NCBI GenBank assembly: GCA_964478705.1
Contig: CAYZIR010000005.1
Coordinates: forward strand, 508-64,507
Direction: 5' to 3'
From: an uncultured Candidatus Saccharibacteria bacterium
GTDB taxonomy: Bacteria > Patescibacteriota > Minisyncoccia > Phycocordibacterales > EsbW-18
Length of the DNA: 64,000 nucleotides
This document shows, piece after piece, positions 4,951 to 60,227 of the stretch. Made by a program: the position numbers and the translations under genes. Each line of letters opens with the position of its first letter. The first letter of the stretch is position 1. The notes beneath the pieces were generated by a model. It was not told where the DNA came from and made no database searches. It was given only the letters and a program-made list of their open reading frames with translations.

Positions 4951-5110
4951 TTCGGTCACGAATCACTAAGTATTTTGCTCGCTTTGCTCACAAAATCCTA
5001 AGTGTTCTCGACCCCGCCTCGCCCCGCTCTGCGGGGCTCCGGCCTTCGAATCCTTCCCGAAGCTAAAACAAAAGTCGCCGAATGCTGACGCATCCGGCTC
5101 CTTTGTTTTT
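4951..5110 (-). repeat. ~160-bp tRNA-3'-flanking element bounded by 14-bp direct repeats of the tRNA-Phe 3' end
   Basis: GTGCTTGGGGGCGG at 4937..4950 and 5111..5124. Interior has hairpin CAAAACAAAGGAGCCGGATGCGTCAGCATTCGGCGACTTTTGTTTTAG and module GGATTCGAAGGCCGGAGCCCCGCAGAGCGGGGCGAGGCGGGGTCGAGAACACTTAGGATTTTG, homologous to the element 3' of tRNA-Leu(TAA) at 24758..24916. Confidence 0.7.
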
Positions 5111-5111
5111 G

Positions 5112-5185
5112 TGCTTGGGGGCGGATTCGAACCGCCGACCCTCTGCTCTTCAGGCAGATGCTCTAACCAACTGAGCTACCCAAGC
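5112..5185 (-). tRNA. tRNA-Phe (anticodon GAA), CCA not encoded
   Basis: Cloverleaf GCTTGGG/TA/GCTC..GAGC/TCTGC-CTGAAGA-GCAGA/GGCGG-TTCGAAT-CCGCC/CCCAAGC-A read on minus strand. Confidence 0.9.
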
Positions 5186-5186
5186 A

Positions 5187-5270
5187 TAATTCTTCTCTAA
5201 CCAATCCCGACGCTTCGGTCGGGACCCCGACCTCCGCCTTGCGGAGCGTCGGGGCTGAGCTACCCAAGCA
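5187..5270 (-). repeat. Partial tRNA-Phe 5' copy (nt 1-15 plus 16-25) interrupted at D-loop position 15/16 by a 50-nt GC-rich hairpin
   Basis: CTGAGCTACCCAAGCA at 5255..5270 duplicates 5171..5186. Insert TCCCGACGCTTCGGTCGGGACCCCGACCTCCGCCTTGCGGAGCGTCGGGG at 5205..5254. Near-identical insert at tRNA-Thr (60162..60211) and a related one at tRNA-Arg (5844..5903). Confidence 0.75.
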
Positions 5271-5464
5271 AATGAGGATGACACGCAGCGTTTAGGACGA
5301 AGGTTTCGAGGCGAGAGAAAAAGGAAGCTCGCTTACTTTTTCTTGAGACCGAGGAACCGGGAGTCCGAAGCTATGTGGTCCGAACGCCGCTTGGGTATGG
5401 TACTCCATATCCAAGTCTTGCGTATTCGCCATTTTACCACAATTTTCTAGCCTCTCAATGTACG

Positions 5465-5828: not shown

Positions 5829-5916
5829 GCCCTCATAGTTCAAAGCCGACGCTACGAAGTAGGTCTACTCCCCGATTCACGCCTCGCGTGGCGTCGGGGC
5901 TGATAAGAAGGTGTAC
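5829..5916 (+). repeat. Partial tRNA-Arg 5' copy (nt 1-15) followed by a 60-nt GC-rich hairpin insert
   Basis: GCCCTCATAGTTCAA (5829..5843) is identical to tRNA-Arg nt 1-15; insert AGCCGACGCTACGAAG...GGCGTCGGGGCTGA (5844..5903) shares the ends AGCCGACGCT / GCGTCGGGGCTGA with the Phe and Thr inserts. Confidence 0.7.
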
Positions 5917-5918
5917 GC

Positions 5919-5990
5919 GCCCTCATAGTTCAACGGATAGAACAACTCCGTCCTAAGGAGTGGATCTAGGTTCAATTCCTGGTGAGGGCA
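5919..5990 (+). tRNA. tRNA-Arg (anticodon CCT)
   Basis: GCCCTCA acceptor pairs with TGAGGGC; anticodon stem ACTCC/GGAGT; loop GTCCTAA. Confidence 0.85.
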
Positions 5991-6188
5991 CAAAACAAAG
6001 GAGTCGGATGCGTCAGCATTCGGCGAGTTTTGTTTTGTAGCTTCACAACAGGGATTGAAAGTGAGTGCGGGGCACCCCGCCAGTAGGCGGGGTCGCACGA
6101 ACAGGGCCGAGCGGAACGAGGAGCGACGGCGACGAGTGAGCGCTTGGCCAATTCCTGGTGAGGGCACAAAACAAAGGAGTCGGATGCG
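5991..6188 (+). repeat. tRNA-Arg 3'-flanking element bounded by 39-bp direct repeats that include the tRNA 3' end
   Basis: AATTCCTGGTGAGGGCACAAAACAAAGGAGTCGGATGCG at 5974..6012 and 6150..6188. Interior carries hairpin CAAAACAAAGGAGTCGGATGCGTCAGCATTCGGCGAGTTTTGTTTTG and motif GGAGCGACGGCGACGAG. Confidence 0.7.
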
Positions 6189-6204
6189 AATTGCTATCCT
6201 CTTA

Positions 6205-6660
6205 CTACCCTTTTGCAAGAAATCGTCCCAAGCCCCACACACGTCCAGCGTCAAAAGCATGCACAATAAGGAGACCTATTGCGTACACCACGTGCTCATC
6301 AACAATGTAGGCGTGCTCGTTCGGATATGGAAACTGTAAAATCGGAAGATAGTAGAGAGCCATCAAAATAATACCGAGCACCGAGGACAGTCGCGTGAAC
6401 ACGCCGATGATGAGAGAAACCCCAATCAAGGTGAGTCCCCATTCATTCAAGAAATCAACGAACGGTAATACGTTCGGTTGCGCAAAAAACTGAAAGAGCT
6501 CGGGAAACGTTTTCGCGCCGGCAAGATACCCCGCCGATGTCCACGAAGCATCGAGTACTTTTGTAATACCGGCATAAAAGAAAAGCCAACCGAGCGAGAT
6601 GCGGAGCAAAAAGAGGGAGATTCTCTGAAGCATAGATTCTTGATTAGTGGGTAAGATCAC
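6205..6660 (-). CDS. DoxX-family membrane protein
   Basis: 4-TM protein, LRISLGWLFFYAGITK..GLTLIGVSLIIGVFTRL pattern typical of DoxX. Alternative start at 6633. Confidence 0.6.
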   Translation of the reverse strand: MILPTNQESMLQRISLFLLRISLGWLFFYAGITKVLDASWTSAGYLAGAKTFPELFQFFAQPNVLPFVDFLNEWGLTLIGVSLIIGVFTRLSSVLGIILMALYYLPILQFPYPNEHAYIVDEHVVYAIGLLIVHAFDAGRVWGLGRFLAKG

Positions 6661-6745
6661 TATCCACTAAAGTATATCAAAAACGTATCTATCTGTGTGG
6701 GATTCTCGCGCCTCAACCTTGGCTCAAGACAATTTTACGAACCGG

Positions 6746-6816
6746 TGCGAGTAGCGAGAATCGAACTCGCGTCTGATGCTTGGGAAGCATCCATTCTGCC
6801 ACTGAACTATACTCGC
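6746..6816 (-). tRNA. tRNA-Gly (anticodon CCC), CCA not encoded
   Basis: GCGAGTA acceptor, anticodon stem GATGC/GCATC, loop TTCCCAA, TTCGATT T-loop. Confidence 0.85.
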
Positions 6817-6821
6817 AAAAT

Positions 6822-6860
6822 TCAACGGGGTCGCGTTGTACCACTAAACTAATCCCGCGT
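6822..6860 (-). repeat. tRNA-like 5' half fragment upstream of tRNA-Gly
   Basis: GCGGGATTAGTTTAGTGGTACAACGCGACCCC (read on minus strand) looks like an acceptor/D-arm but has no matching 3' half. Confidence 0.4.
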
Positions 6861-17562: not shown

Positions 17563-17568
17563 AAAATA

Positions 17569-17607
17569 ACAAACAACCTACAACAAACAACCTACAACAA
17601 ACAACCC
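17569..17607 (-). repeat. GGTTGT-type tandem repeat directly abutting the tRNA-Tyr 5' end
   Basis: tRNA sense strand: GGGTTGTTTGTTGTAGGTTGTTTGTTGTAGGTTGTTTGTTATTTTGC then tRNA. Same motif upstream of tRNA-Leu(TAG) at 25285..25323. Confidence 0.7.
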
Positions 17608-17619
17608 GAAAAAGCAAAA

Positions 17620-21182: not shown

Positions 21183-21381
21183 TCATGTAGCGCGAAACAT
21201 GTAACATGTAGCGTGCAACACAGAATACGGAGTACAGAGTACGGAACATAGAGTACGGAGTACAGAGTACGGAACATAGAGTACGGAGTACAGAGTACGG
21301 AACATAGAGTACGGAACACGGAGTACGGAGTATGGAAACTCCAAACTCATGTACGCGTTACATGTTACATGTTTCGCGCTA
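21183..21381. repeat. 25-bp perfect inverted repeat enclosing a 28-bp tandem repeat array
   Basis: CATGTAGCGCGAAACATGTAACATGTA (21183..21209) and its reverse complement TACATGTTACATGTTTCGCGCTACA (21357..21381). Between them AGAGTACGGAGTACAGAGTACGGAACAT occurs three times plus partials. Confidence 0.8.
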
Positions 21382-24667: not shown

Positions 24668-24755
24668 GCCCGGGTGATGGAATTGGTAGACATACAGGAC
24701 TTAAAATCCTGGGGCCGTGAATTCGGTCGTGTGGGTTCGATTCCCACCCTGGGCA
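24668..24755 (+). tRNA. tRNA-Leu (anticodon TAA), long variable arm
   Basis: GCCCGGG acceptor, loop CTTAAAA, variable arm GGGCCGTGAATTCGGTCGTG, TTCGATT. Confidence 0.88.
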
Positions 24756-24757
24756 CT

Positions 24758-24916
24758 CGGAGGAAATTTAAACATTTTGATCGACGGTGGGAATCGAAGG
24801 CCGGAGGCGCGCCATTGGTCTGAGCGCCGACCTGCCTGCCGGCAGGCAGGGGCGGGGTCGAGAGTACTTAGAATTTTAGGCGCATAGCGACTAAAATACT
24901 TGAGTTGCTCGTGACC
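24758..24916 (+). repeat. 159-bp tRNA-3'-flanking element bounded by 19-bp direct repeats of the tRNA-Leu(TAA) 3' end
   Basis: GATTCCCACCCTGGGCACT at 24739..24757 and 24917..24935. Interior ..GGAATCGAAGGCCGGAGGCGCG..GGGGCGGGGTCGAGAGTACTTAGAATTTTAGGCGCATAGCGACTAAAATACTTGAG..CGTGACC is homologous to the tRNA-Phe element. Confidence 0.75.
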
Positions 24917-24960
24917 GATTCCCACCCTGGGCACTTACAGAATATTTTCAAAATAGGGCA

Positions 24961-25011: not shown

Positions 25012-25153
25012 GGCGTGCGGACCACATGGCGTAGATAGCTCGGGCTCCCATTTTCTCGTGCTCAAGCAAAAATAAGAACAAGCTCTTATTTTTGCTCTCC
25101 ACTCGAAAACACGCCCTCGCTTGAGAGACACACCGCGTGTCATCCTTACTAAA

Positions 25154-25284: not shown

Positions 25285-25323
25285 TTTGTTGTAGGTTGTC
25301 TGTTGTAGGTTGTTGGTTATTTC
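25285..25323 (+). repeat. GGTTGT-type tandem repeat abutting the tRNA-Leu(TAG) 5' end
   Basis: TTTGTTGTAGGTTGTCTGTTGTAGGTTGTTGGTTATTTC followed immediately by the tRNA. Confidence 0.7.
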
Positions 25324-25405: not shown

Positions 25406-25570
25406 CAAAACAGAGAGCCGAGTGCGTCAGCATTCGGCAATTTTGTTTTGCGCGATTGAGAGAGGGCTCGAAGGGCGGAACCCCGCAGAGCGAGGTGAGC
25501 CGGGTCGAGAAATTTTTACGAGCGACGGCGAGTAAAAAAATGTTCTTGGCCGAATTCTCTCGGCCAAAGC
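25406..25570 (+). repeat. tRNA-Leu(TAG) 3'-flanking element with degenerate direct repeat
   Basis: Hairpin CAAAACAGAGAGCCGAGTGCGTCAGCATTCGGCAATTTTGTTTTG, module GGGCTCGAAGGGCGGAACCCCGCAGAGCGAGGTGAGCCGGGTCGAGAAA, motif ACGAGCGACGGCGAG. Degenerate repeat TCTCTCGGCCAAAGC (25556..25570) versus tRNA 3' TCTCTCGCCCACAAAAC. Followed by a perfect hairpin 25569..25597. Confidence 0.65.
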
Positions 25571-60066: not shown

Positions 60067-60142
60067 TGGAGCCGCTTCCCAGACTCGAACTGGGGACCTT
60101 CTCTTTACAAAAGAGTTGCTCTACCAACTGAGCTAAAGCGGC
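60067..60142 (-). tRNA. tRNA-Thr (anticodon TGT), CCA encoded
   Basis: GCCGCTT acceptor, loop TTTGTAA, TTCGAGT, 3' ..AAGCGGCTCCA. Confidence 0.88.
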
Positions 60143-60150
60143 AATATATT

Positions 60151-60227
60151 TATTCTACCAAAGCCGACGCTTCGGTCGGCTCCCCGACCCTCGCCCTGCG
60201 AGGCGTCGGGGCTGAGCTAAAGCGGCA
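60151..60227 (-). repeat. Partial tRNA-Thr 5' copy interrupted at D-loop 15/16 by a 50-nt GC-rich hairpin (sibling of the tRNA-Phe insert)
   Basis: CTGAGCTAAAGCGGCA at 60212..60227 duplicates 60128..60143. Insert AGCCGACGCTTCGGTCGGCTCCCCGACCCTCGCCCTGCGAGGCGTCGGGG (60162..60211) is ~85% identical to 5205..5254. Confidence 0.75.

Follow-up and report, generated by a model that had tools for sequence, protein, structure and literature searches.

Why should three tRNA genes of an ultra-small CPR/Patescibacteria bacterium each be preceded by a dead stub of themselves, split by a GC-rich double hairpin? We addressed this question on a 64,000-nucleotide stretch (hereafter the window) of an uncultured Candidatus Saccharibacteria genome, and compared it with loci fetched from genome and metagenome collections (designated by L numbers). 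The results suggest that these structures are probably the leftovers of an apparently undescribed selfish cassette carrying a predicted nuclease gene, which overwrites tRNA genes.

Structure of the three interrupted tRNA stubs

Direct reading of the sequence, combined with ARAGORN and the Rfam tRNA model, resolved the same layout at three loci: a copy of tRNA nt 1-15, a double hairpin of 50-58 nt (element E), a copy of nt 16 to about 25, a spacer of 9-11 nt, and then the intact tRNA.

5111-5185, - strand: intact tRNA-Phe(GAA) (ARAGORN; Rfam tRNA model, 75 bits)
5186-5194, - strand: 9-nt spacer between the stub and the intact tRNA-Phe, part of an 84-nt insertion
5195-5204, - strand: copy of tRNA-Phe nt 16-25 (TTGGTTAGAG)
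5205-5254, - strand: element E, 50 nt, reading CCCCGACGCTCCGCAAGGCGGAGGTCGGGG + TCCCGACCGAAGCGTCGGGA in tRNA sense, inserted exactly between nt 15 and nt 16 of the stub
5255-5269, - strand: copy of tRNA-Phe nt 1-15 (GCTTGGGTAGCTCAG), in the native upstream context, directly after the conserved block ending ...GTGTCATCCTCATTT
5829-5843, + strand: copy of tRNA-Arg(CCT) nt 1-15, in the native upstream context (...CATCCTCACTT)
5844-5901, - strand: degenerate E copy, 58 nt, whose family-sense strand is the - strand
5902-5909, + strand: GATAAGAA, an imperfect copy of about tRNA-Arg nt 18-24
5910-5918, + strand: 9-nt spacer GGTGTACGC
5919-5991, + strand: intact tRNA-Arg(CCT) (ARAGORN; Rfam)
60067-60142, - strand: intact tRNA-Thr(TGT) (ARAGORN; Rfam)
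60143-60153, - strand: 11-nt spacer
60154-60161, - strand: copy of tRNA-Thr nt 16-23 (TTGGTAGA)
60162-60211, - strand: element E, 50 nt, reading CCCCGACGCCTCGCAGGGCGAGGGTCGGGG + AGCCGACCGAAGCGTCGGCT in tRNA sense, exactly between nt 15 and nt 16
60212-60226, - strand: copy of tRNA-Thr nt 1-15 (GCCGCTTTAGCTCAG)

A preliminary description, made from the sequence alone, had reported this arrangement, and its observation proved correct to the base. In the Phe and Thr stubs, E sits exactly between G15 and T16, with no base lost or duplicated at its own edges. The exact 13-mer GCGTCGGGGCTGA occurs three times in the window, only at these sites, and the first 14 nt of each of the three tRNAs occur exactly twice, while the other seven of the ten tRNAs of the window carry no E. 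The element folds into two adjacent hairpins, with a dG of about -38 kcal/mol for Phe (-38.8 kcal/mol, z = -6.4) and Thr (-38 kcal/mol, z = -5.5), but with only z = -2 for the Arg copy, which keeps the CCCCGA..TCGGGG hairpin but is mutated in the left arm of the second one (AGTAGAC instead of AGCCGAC). The Phe and Thr inserts are 82% identical, against a preliminary estimate of about 85%. Recent intragenomic copying between them was not supported, since each is closer to E copies from other genomes (0.88-0.92) than to the other (0.82). In addition, all three E copies share the same orientation on the + strand, a detail missed by the preliminary description, so that E is inverted relative to tRNA-Arg compared with Phe and Thr; E is also inverted in the related tRNA-Arg(TCT) cassettes L112 and L148.

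The structure is not an assembly artefact, as three independent assemblies of the same species from other sequencing runs (L247-L249) carry the identical Thr-locus structure. The species occurs in the samples SRR16481183, SRR16481186 and SRR16481187, and a close relative is represented by GCA_020049755.1. Rfam searches returned only the ten tRNAs at the gathering threshold and nothing further on the loci, even at E <= 1. No consensus promoter lies in or after E and no T-tract follows it, although a promoter-like site lies about 160 nt upstream of the Phe stub.

Insertion polymorphism and a widespread palindromic family

Relatives with the same gene order have plain tRNA genes at all three loci. 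At the locus ValRS-PrsW-Hsp20-tRNA-Phe-ORF82-tRNA-Arg, L252 and L255 have a plain tRNA-Phe, while L254, L256 and L258 have plain tRNA-Phe and tRNA-Arg; empty Phe and Arg sites occur in five relatives, including a close one lacking exactly 84 nt. This close relative, L259 (Hsp20 97% aa, flanks 93% nt), lacks exactly window positions 5186-5269; it also carries a second palindrome next to a 176-aa ORF that gave no family match. At the locus rpsB-tsf-small ORF-tRNA-Thr(TGT), L250 is empty, the window and L247-L249 carry E only, and L241 carries E together with a nuclease ORF. The small ORF next to the cassette in L241 shows no detectable similarity to that of the window, so that orthology of the Thr locus rests on gene order only. 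The stub, rather than the intact gene, is the native piece: the conserved upstream block and the ...CATCCTCAyTT motif that abut nt 1 of intact tRNAs in relatives abut the stub in the window. The same block directly precedes nt 1 of an uninterrupted tRNA-Phe in L258, L254 and L259, and L254 and L258 have ...CTCACTy directly before tRNA-Arg nt 1.

Element E belongs to a family found across CPR genomes, with a conserved CCCCGAC..GTCGGGG + nnCCGAC..GTCGGn'n' core, of which 87 distinct copies were collected in fetched CPR loci, in intergenic, tRNA-stub and coding contexts. Its termini are conserved across dozens of CPR genomes. The structure is under selection, as the variable pairs are fully compensatory (0 of 42 unpaired at two closing pairs) and 0 of 500 shuffles reach the score, whereas a comparison of G:U versus A:C pairs yielded too few informative pairs to indicate the strand of action. 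In an unbiased sample, 7 of 25 copies split tRNA 5' stubs, against about 0.4% expected. Others lie between genes or in frame inside HisRS, Pth, LigA, two MurD-like ligases, an exonuclease and a glycosyltransferase, none of them in the window. All seven of these coding insertions have lengths that are multiples of 3 (p = 5e-4), and in LigA the alignment to solved LigA structures resumes immediately after the inserted peptide. The conserved termini, the association with tRNA genes and the polymorphism at all three loci satisfied the conditions under which the preliminary description would have stood.

These searches differed in their selectivity. The pattern CCGACGCTN{20,50}GCGTCGGGGCT, scanned against the genome collection, returned 120 hits, most of them chance matches in high-GC genomes (Lysobacter, Streptomyces, Polyangia), which were filtered out by GC content and by the double-hairpin rule. 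The metagenome scan required E joined to TAGCTCAG and also returned about half chance hits in high-GC coding DNA; being biased towards the tRNA context, it cannot measure how often cassettes lack E and was not used for frequency estimates. In the viral contigs, the one hit was a chance match and a generic E pattern gave none.

A putative nuclease cassette and its alternatives

About 56 metagenomic stub-E loci were found, nearly all followed within 18-100 nt by the matching intact tRNA (Thr, Val, Ile, Phe, Lys, Ala). In about 25 related loci, a gene of 86-88 aa encoding a UPF0213/Slx1-like GIY-YIG nuclease sits between a hairpin-plugged dead tRNA copy and the intact tRNA, with mirror-image and nested or tandem versions; one of these is L241, the locus with the same gene order as the Thr locus of the window. 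The ORF matches Pfam PF01541 (E = 1e-12 to 1e-14), a profile search hits the UPF0213 structures 1zg2 (E = 2e-13) and 1ywl, then SLX1, and the catalytic Y, G, R, H and E residues are invariant. No such ORF lies in the 64-kb window, so that the link to the nuclease rests on related loci and the window copies can only be derivatives. Of four loci reached through the protein alone, three carry E (L241, L243, L245) and one a single related hairpin (L244), while more divergent GIY-YIG ORFs show the same logic with other palindrome families plugging D-, anticodon- and T-loops. Stub and intact tRNA differ in acceptor nt 1-7 in 7 of 8 ORF-bearing loci but in only 7 of 28 ORF-less loci (p = 0.003), which fits intact ORFs being recent arrivals from other lineages. 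Furthermore, the tRNA-Gly of the window shows overwriting without E, its native 5' 30 nt (as in L258) being stranded upstream of a different, complete tRNA-Gly. Both observations match the co-conversion of flanking host sequence, giving chimeric flanks, expected of a homing cassette.

We therefore consider it most likely (probability of about 0.6) that the three sites are ORF-less footprints of a family of selfish cassettes that colonise tRNA genes in CPR/Patescibacteria. In this view, a complete cassette would comprise a dead copy of the tRNA gene (either a 5' stub of nt 1-~27 upstream, or a nearly whole copy lacking nt 1-7 downstream), the small nuclease gene, which often reads through tRNA nt 1-7 and stops at T8-A9-G10, and an intact copy of the same tRNA, which keeps the cell alive. 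The dead copy would always be plugged by GC-rich palindromic hairpins placed in its loops, the plug being E, exactly at D-loop position 15/16, in the Thr/Val/Ile/Phe/Lys/Ala type. The polymorphism, the native position of the stub, the cassette architecture in related loci, the assignment of the ORF to the GIY-YIG nucleases, the selected structure of E, its dispersal as an insertion element, the stub mismatches and the tRNA-Gly replacement are established by the present analysis, whereas cleavage by the nuclease and its specificity, the role of the hairpin and the mechanism as a whole are inferred. According to this proposed mechanism, the nuclease would break a cassette-free tRNA gene, position 15/16 being only a candidate cleavage site, and repair would copy the cassette from a donor allele by homing, as for phage SegB, leaving the resident 5' part stranded upstream in its native context and rebuilding a complete tRNA downstream. 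The hairpin plug would make the spare copy uncleavable and cut the direct repeat into pieces too short to recombine, stabilising the cassette. Once the cassette is fixed in a population, the nuclease gene would decay and be deleted, leaving the stub-E-stub-spacer-tRNA state seen three times in the window.

Several elements nevertheless weigh against this model. The intact tRNA copy still carries the unplugged D-loop sequence, so that a simple model with this sequence as the target predicts self-cleavage, and an 86-aa protein with no DNA-binding domain is an unlikely sequence-specific enzyme. If ORF-less forms were plain deletion derivatives of the ORF-bearing ones, their stubs should mismatch the tRNA just as often, which they do not; some ORF-less units may therefore arise or spread on their own. 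The model also leaves unexplained how a cassette first acquires the 5' sequence of a new tRNA type, and L030 has an E-split full-length tRNA-Arg(TCT) with no intact copy within 8 kb.

The interpretations advanced in the preliminary description were only partly supported. Mobile, insertion-derived DNA tied to the tRNA D-loop is supported, and a recombination signal remains possible in a modified form, as a plug that blocks cleavage or recombination of the spare copy; by contrast, a miniature transposon generating long target duplications is not supported. An autonomous or trans-mobilised element of the MITE or REP type, targeting the D-loop or hairpin loops in general and itself producing the local duplication, with the GIY-YIG genes as mobilising enzymes or hitch-hikers and window copies that never contained an ORF, is the least unlikely of the alternatives, although still improbable. 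E does occur on its own in intergenic and coding DNA, nests inside the loops of other E hairpins and has ends forming a 9-11 nt inverted repeat; in 21 of 28 ORF-less loci the stub is identical to the adjacent tRNA, as expected for a local event, and the structure-specific (Slx1-like) affinities of the nuclease would suit a hairpin substrate. However, E has no target-site duplication in any context and its coding insertions are clean and in frame, the tRNA repeats flank the spacer or, in full-length relatives, the ORF rather than E, and the tRNA-Gly locus shows the same stub-spacer-tRNA layout without any E. Among about 260 fetched loci, no autonomous parent with the same terminal repeats and a transposase was found, the only recurrent neighbour being the GIY-YIG ORF, which is not bounded by E ends. 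A local duplication including upstream sequence is excluded, since the flanks before the two copies are unrelated in most loci; the apparent 12-nt flank repeat in L241 is a conserved motif found before many tRNAs.

The remaining readings appear very unlikely. A host-beneficial 5' leader, acting as a structured RNA or DNA signal for transcription, RNase P processing, insulation from upstream transcription or regulation of the tRNA, would fit the position of the unit in the presumed pre-tRNA leader downstream of a promoter-like site, the selection on the hairpins and the mostly shared orientation of E and tRNA, but close relatives express the same tRNAs without it, seven of the ten tRNAs of the window lack it, the Arg copy is inverted and decayed, no T-tract follows the hairpins and the same element is tolerated in frame inside protein genes. 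attL/attR scars of a prophage or integrative element that used the tRNA gene as attB and was later almost entirely deleted are no more plausible: tRNA genes are classical attachment sites, partial tRNA duplications are their hallmark, and the window also has 3'-end duplications at tRNA-Arg and tRNA-Leu, yet no integrase lies near any of about 60 loci, only 9-11 nt (window) or the GIY-YIG ORF (relatives) lies between the repeats, the 5' rather than the 3' part is duplicated, E was absent from the viral contig collection, and the same 80-90 nt layout recurs at three loci and in dozens of genomes, which random deletion would not produce. Least likely of all is a relic of a tRNA intron or of a split or permuted tRNA, in which the hairpin would be removed or would join two halves at the RNA level. 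The position inside a tRNA loop, the GC-rich helix and L030 could argue for it, but the window stubs stop at nt 23-25 with no 3' half, the adjacent genes are complete and uninterrupted, no ribozyme core, splicing motif (group I or archaeal bulge-helix-bulge) or Rfam intron match was found for this 50-nt element forming two plain hairpins, and E is translated when it lies in genes, so it is not spliced. In addition, a survey of Patescibacteria tRNA introns reports group I introns in the anticodon loop and nothing of this kind (PMC13011429).

Related systems and implications for CPR bacteria

Neither Rfam nor our literature searches turned up a description of these structures. The closest precedent is SegB, a free-standing GIY-YIG homing endonuclease wedged in the tRNA gene cluster of phages T4/T6, which cuts inside tRNA genes, is inherited together with flanking tRNA sequence and drives tandem [tRNA + segB] amplification through microhomology between the tRNA 5' end and the segB 3' end (PMC2330249; PMC13096335), resembling the ORF/tRNA overlap and nested units seen here. 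SegB is however a phage protein of about 220 aa with a DNA-binding domain and a cleavage motif in the T-loop, whereas the present protein is an 86-aa chromosomal UPF0213/Slx1-like domain with no homologue found in the phage collection, one tRNA copy is deliberately dead, and this copy carries palindromic plugs that SegB loci lack. The best sequence matches of the ORF, the small UPF0213/COG2827 proteins (BH0048, EF2693; E. coli YhbQ class) and the Slx1 structure-specific nucleases, share its catalytic residues; no biological role or genomic context rule is known to have been assigned to bacterial UPF0213 proteins, and an association with tRNA genes and palindromes was not found in the literature searched.

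Rickettsia palindromic elements (RPE) and REP/BIME-type repeats are likewise short GC-rich palindromic units dispersed between genes of reduced genomes and, for RPEs, in frame inside protein-coding genes, adding a short peptide. Their sequences are unrelated to E, which is a double hairpin with a fixed CCGAC/GTCGG core, strongly enriched in the D-loops of dead tRNA copies next to a nuclease gene; no RAYT-type transposase was seen, although no whole genome was covered. Mobile GIY-YIG ORFs of fungal mitochondria insert into genes and carry a replacement copy of the gene end, leaving a displaced, non-functional fragment beside a restored functional copy, and the GC-rich double-hairpin elements (DHEs) of Allomyces mtDNA and yeast mt GC clusters are mobile double hairpins of 26-80 nt lying next to such insertions; there, the setting is organellar, the targets are protein genes, the hairpin sequences are unrelated and no plugs occupy defined loop positions of a tRNA. 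MITEs resemble E in being small, non-coding, multi-copy and polymorphic in insertion with terminal inverted repeats, but E is far smaller, lacks a target-site duplication and a cognate transposase-bearing parent with the same ends, and the observed repeats belong to the cassette rather than to E.

A bolder reading, which we regard as doubtful though not excluded, is that UPF0213/Slx1-like nucleases and palindromic plugs together form a previously unrecognised, structure-guided selfish system of CPR bacteria. The nuclease would attack the hairpin loops of tRNA genes, with the tDNA extruded as a cloverleaf or cruciform, and tRNA genes would be overwritten by cassette copies. Palindromic elements would be copied into the broken loops (D, anticodon, T) of the spare copy, immunising and stabilising the cassette, while the same palindromes would spread RPE-like into protein genes. 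If true, this would give bacterial UPF0213 proteins, to our knowledge, their first biological role and would explain a class of pseudo-tRNA debris around CPR tRNA genes.

In practice, stubs and split copies can be miscalled or can mask tRNA genes, and they represent an assembly hazard, as two of the three independent short-read contigs of this species stop within the first 28 nt of the intact tRNA-Thr, just past the repeated stub. The polymorphic insertions might also be useful lineage markers in metagenomes. The palindromic family, conserved across CPR classes and tolerated in frame inside housekeeping proteins (HisRS, LigA, MurD-like ligases, Pth), matters for protein annotation and structure prediction, and the cassettes offer a concrete hypothesis for the widespread small GIY-YIG (UPF0213) proteins. 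Finally, CPR/Patescibacteria have tiny genomes, usually with one gene per tRNA species, in which a selfish element that repeatedly overwrites these essential genes and leaves hairpin-plugged debris is unexpected; on the reading favoured here, it would extend homing-endonuclease biology from phages and organelles to the chromosomes of reduced bacteria.

Structure and distribution of the hairpin element

Of the ten tRNA genes carried by the window, three show the layout given in a preliminary description, in which a split partial copy of the tRNA precedes the intact gene, and this observation was confirmed by direct reading of the sequence. The three intact genes are:
5111-5185, - strand, tRNA-Phe
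5919-5991, + strand, tRNA-Arg
60067-60142, - strand, tRNA-Thr

Read on the tRNA strand, each locus consists of a copy of tRNA nt 1-15, a GC-rich insert (hereafter E) of 50 nt for Phe, 58 nt for Arg and 50 nt for Thr, a copy of nt 16 to 23-25, 9-11 unrelated bases, and the intact gene. In Phe and Thr the insert lies exactly between G15 and T16 of TAGCTCAG^TTGG. The 13-mer GCGTCGGGGCTGA occurs exactly three times in the 64 kb, only at these sites, and no further copy of E, whole or half, exists in the window. E folds as two adjacent hairpins, CCCCGAC-(variable mini-hairpin)-GTCGGGG followed by nnCCGAC-loop-GTCGGn'n', with energies far below those of shuffled controls for Phe and Thr (z about -6), whereas the Arg copy is weak (z about -2) because one arm has mutated. 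All three copies point the same way on the + strand, and E is therefore inverted relative to tRNA-Arg. Three independent assemblies of the same species have the identical Thr locus, so the structure is real.

E is a family rather than a local oddity. A loose pattern scan of species-representative genomes returned many chance hits in high-GC genomes, but also about 25 true double hairpins in Saccharibacteria, Paceibacteria, Kaiser-, Adler-, Vogel-, Zambryski- and Taylorbacteria, and a few oddly labelled MAGs. Seven of these 25 split a tRNA 5' fragment in the D-arm, a share very unlikely by chance given that tRNA genes make up about 0.4% of such genomes (p about 1e-11). Across all retrieved loci (designated L hereafter) we collected 87 distinct copies. 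In an alignment of 42 of them the core is invariant, in part because the search pattern selected for it, while the free positions covary perfectly: the two closing pairs of the second hairpin take the forms AG/CT, TC/GA, CT/AG, CC/GG, GG/CC and CG/CG with no unpaired case, and no shuffle reached the observed covariation. Small CCGAC..GTCGG hairpins were also found nested in the loops of larger E copies. Rfam has no matching family, literature searches found no description of the element, and a 2026 survey of Patescibacteria tRNA introns does not mention anything like it.

E is also found beyond tRNA genes. In the retrieved CPR loci it lies in frame inside housekeeping protein genes, namely those for HisRS, peptidyl-tRNA hydrolase (Pth), NAD-dependent DNA ligase (LigA), two MurD-like ligases, an exonuclease and a glycosyltransferase (L012 at about 3926 and about 1741, L072 at about 6118, L227 at about 3241, L062 at about 1472, L101 at about 4458, and L169), adding peptides such as APTSGVGAPTGSVG that resemble APTxxVGAPTxxVG. 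All seven insert lengths are multiples of three (p = 5e-4), and the alignment of the ligase to solved LigA structures resumes directly after the inserted peptide. This is the behaviour of Rickettsia palindromic elements, and we found no report of it for CPR.

Genomic neighbourhood of E and a small GIY-YIG nuclease gene

A metagenome scan for E joined to TAGCTCAG returned more than 120 loci, of which about 56 are true stub-E units, nearly all followed, 18-100 nt after E, by the matching intact tRNA (Thr, Val, Ile, Phe, Lys or Ala). In a subset of these, the gap holds an 86-88 aa ORF that is a GIY-YIG nuclease domain (Pfam PF01541), whose closest solved relatives are the UPF0213 proteins 1zg2 and 1ywl, then the structure-specific nuclease SLX1, and whose catalytic residues are invariant across 31 sequences. 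A profile search of all loci recovered about 25 distinct copies of this ORF and several more divergent ones, and in a tree of 30 distinct copies, 24 have a tRNA gene immediately beside them. No nuclease gene lies in the window itself.

Two mirror-image layouts were distinguished. In the first, [nt 1-15]-E-[nt 16-27]-about 17 nt-ORF-[intact tRNA], the ORF often runs through tRNA nt 1-7 and uses T8-A9-G10 as its stop codon. The second reads [intact tRNA]-terminator-ORF-TAGCTCAG-E-[nt 16-76], and in one such locus (L155) the downstream part is identical to the live gene. Nested and tandem units also occur (L022, L152, L182, L168, L149 and L181). Of four loci reached through the protein alone, three carry E (L241, L243 and L245) and one a single related hairpin in the dead copy (L244).

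More divergent GIY-YIG ORFs show the same logic for tRNA-Ile, Tyr and Val (L102, about 5040-5400; L170, about 370-1000 and about 1030-1650; L208, about 1100-1700). There, other palindrome families (for example CCACCGCC..GGCGGGG and CCCGCC..GGCGGG) sit in the D-loop, in or replacing the anticodon loop or arm, and in the T-arm of the dead copy, spaced about 20 nt apart. The common rule is one live tRNA, one dead copy, a small nuclease gene between them, and GC-rich hairpins plugged into the loops of the dead copy. By contrast, L030 (about 6100-6330, - strand) holds an otherwise full-length tRNA-Arg(TCT) split by E in the D-arm after nt 11, with a second insertion of about 75 nt in the T-arm, and neither an intact copy nor a GIY-YIG ORF lies within this 8-kb locus.

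Insertion polymorphism and tRNA footprints in the window

The window comes from a Parcubacteria-type CPR organism, the relatives of its Hsp20 being named Pace- and Campbellbacteria. The gene order ValRS-PrsW-Hsp20-tRNA-Phe-ORF82-tRNA-Arg-...-tRNA-Gly is conserved in five relatives, and in every one that covers them, tRNA-Phe and tRNA-Arg are plain, with no CCCCGAC or GTCGGGG nearby. The closest relative, L259 (Hsp20 97% aa, flanks 93% nt), aligns up to the tRNA-Phe 5' end and resumes at window 5255, therefore lacking exactly the 84 nt at 5186-5269. In another relative, L254, a free-standing 88-aa UPF0213-type GIY-YIG ORF (1510-1776) lies between valS and prsW, whereas these two genes are adjacent in the window, 15 nt apart (3653/3669). 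This is a second presence/absence polymorphism of a small GIY-YIG gene, here without a tRNA or E.

In the relatives, a conserved upstream block of about 110 nt ends in ...GTCATCCTCAyTT and touches nt 1 of the tRNA, while in the window the same block touches the stub, and it also precedes the window's own tRNA-Lys. So the upstream stub is the resident 5' end, and the piece E + nt 16-25 + spacer + nt 1-15 is the extra DNA. At the tRNA-Thr locus (rpsB-tsf-small ORF-tRNA-Thr(TGT)) three states exist, namely empty (L250), E only (the window and L247-249) and E plus the nuclease ORF (L241), although orthology with L241 rests on gene order because the small ORFs are not detectably similar.

Further footprints and repeated modules were detected in the window:
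6817-6858, - strand, upstream of tRNA-Gly(CCC) 6744-6816: a displaced tRNA stub without E, in which the 30 nt GCGGGATTAGTTTAGTGGTACAACGCGACC (6829-6858) match the 5' part of the native tRNA-Gly(CCC) of relatives L258 and L256 and are followed, after a 12-nt spacer, by a different, complete tRNA-Gly(CCC).
5973-6012 and 6149-6188: an exact 40-nt direct repeat covering the tRNA-Arg 3' end (from the T-loop) plus 21 nt of downstream flank, the copies being separated by 136 nt of GC-rich sequence without Rfam match.
24738-24769 and 24916-24947: the 3' end of tRNA-Leu(TAA) and its duplicate 178 nt downstream.
24831-24850: a perfect 20-nt palindrome, CCTGCCTGCCGGCAGGCAGG, in the DNA between these two copies.
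5270-5400, - strand, and 25020-25153, + strand: the conserved block, about 110-130 nt long (...GGACCACAT..CTCAAG.AAAA.TAAG...TCGAAA...GTGTCATCCTyAyTT), immediately upstream of tRNA-Phe (before its stub) and of tRNA-Lys, and present upstream of tRNA-Phe in relatives (L258, L256, L259).
5458->5431, - strand: a promoter-like site.
5065-5110, - strand, 5992-6036, + strand, and 25407-25450, + strand: nearly the same terminator module (AAAACAAAGGAG-CGGATGCGTCAGCATTCGG-CGA-TTTTGTTTT) after tRNA-Phe, tRNA-Arg and tRNA-Leu(TAG).
About 17563-17610, - strand, and 25286-25323, + strand: the tandem motif GTTGTAGGTTGTTTGTTGTAGG, directly upstream of tRNA-Tyr and tRNA-Leu(TAG).
21189-21356: an array of nine overlapping copies of a 56-nt unit spaced 14 nt apart (a 14-nt periodicity; AGTACAGAGTACGG / AACATAGAGTACGG).

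The tRNA-Gly locus shows the same kind of event as the E-bearing loci, the resident gene seemingly having been overwritten by an incoming one. At the tRNA-Arg repeat, the native downstream context (as in L258) follows the second copy, and tRNA-Arg therefore has footprints on both sides. The palindrome of the tRNA-Leu(TAA) locus also follows the stub in L128 and L186, and in L259 it splits the T-loop of a tRNA-Phe 3' fragment next to a 176-aa ORF of unknown family, which looks like a second palindrome family with a T-loop preference. A short motif, CATCCTCAyTT, also abuts tRNA-Arg and both tRNA copies in L241, and the conserved block may be a shared pre-tRNA leader or promoter-proximal element. 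The recurrent terminator suggests a shared portable 3' module. Short tandem motifs similar to GTTGTAGGTTGTTTGTTGTAGG flank E copies in L035, L019 and L072.

Inferred life cycle and comparison with known systems

While the architecture of these loci, their polymorphism, the native position of the stub, the nuclease family, the selection on the hairpin structure and the general mobility of E are shown by our analyses, the way in which the cassettes spread is inferred. In this view they would behave like free-standing homing-endonuclease genes: a break in a cassette-free tRNA gene would be repaired from a cassette-bearing allele, stranding part of the resident gene and installing the ORF together with a complete tRNA, and after fixation the ORF would decay and be deleted, leaving the E-only state seen in the window. 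Two observations fit this life cycle. Stub and live tRNA differ in the acceptor stem in 7 of 8 ORF-bearing loci, against 7 of 28 ORF-less loci (p = 0.003), intact ORFs therefore looking like recent arrivals from other lineages, and the nuclease tree clusters partly by tRNA type. The precedent is SegB of T4/T6, which cuts inside tRNA genes and generates tandem [tRNA + segB] units by microhomology between the tRNA 5' end and the segB 3' end (PMC2330249; PMC13096335).

For the hairpin, we propose as a hypothesis a plug function selected at the level of the cassette, which would destroy the putative nuclease site in the spare copy and cut the direct repeat flanking the ORF into pieces too short for recombination (15 + 10 nt in the window). 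Longer dead copies carrying several plugs about 20 nt apart fit this proposal. By contrast, other features do not fit. Besides the absence of a nuclease gene from the window and the E-split tRNA-Arg(TCT) of L030 without a live copy, the live tRNA keeps the unplugged D-loop sequence, so that a purely sequence-specific enzyme would endanger its host, and an 86-aa Slx1-like domain more likely reads DNA structure. The high share of perfect stubs in ORF-less loci further suggests that some E-only units spread or arise without an ORF in cis, and the model leaves unexplained how a cassette first captures the 5' sequence of a new tRNA type.

The interpretation offered in the preliminary description, which considered a miniature mobile element targeting the tRNA D-loop and generating long target duplications, or a relic of a tRNA-gene intron, was partly supported: the sites are insertion-derived, but the system fails the defining tests for a MITE and for a tRNA intron, as it does for an integrase scar. 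Confidence that the three sites are polymorphic, insertion-derived relatives of the nuclease cassettes is high, whereas confidence in the homing and plug mechanism is moderate, and we place the overall probability of this reading at 0.62.

In its inferred function, the system works like a free-standing GIY-YIG homing cassette (SegB), and it also resembles the mobile GIY-YIG ORFs with duplicated gene ends and the neighbouring double-hairpin elements of fungal mitochondria. It differs in the nuclease class (UPF0213/Slx1-like, with no DNA-binding domain), the chromosomal setting in reduced bacteria, the dead-copy/live-copy design and the loop-specific palindromic plugs. The window itself holds only the fossils, but they led to a widespread and apparently undescribed system.
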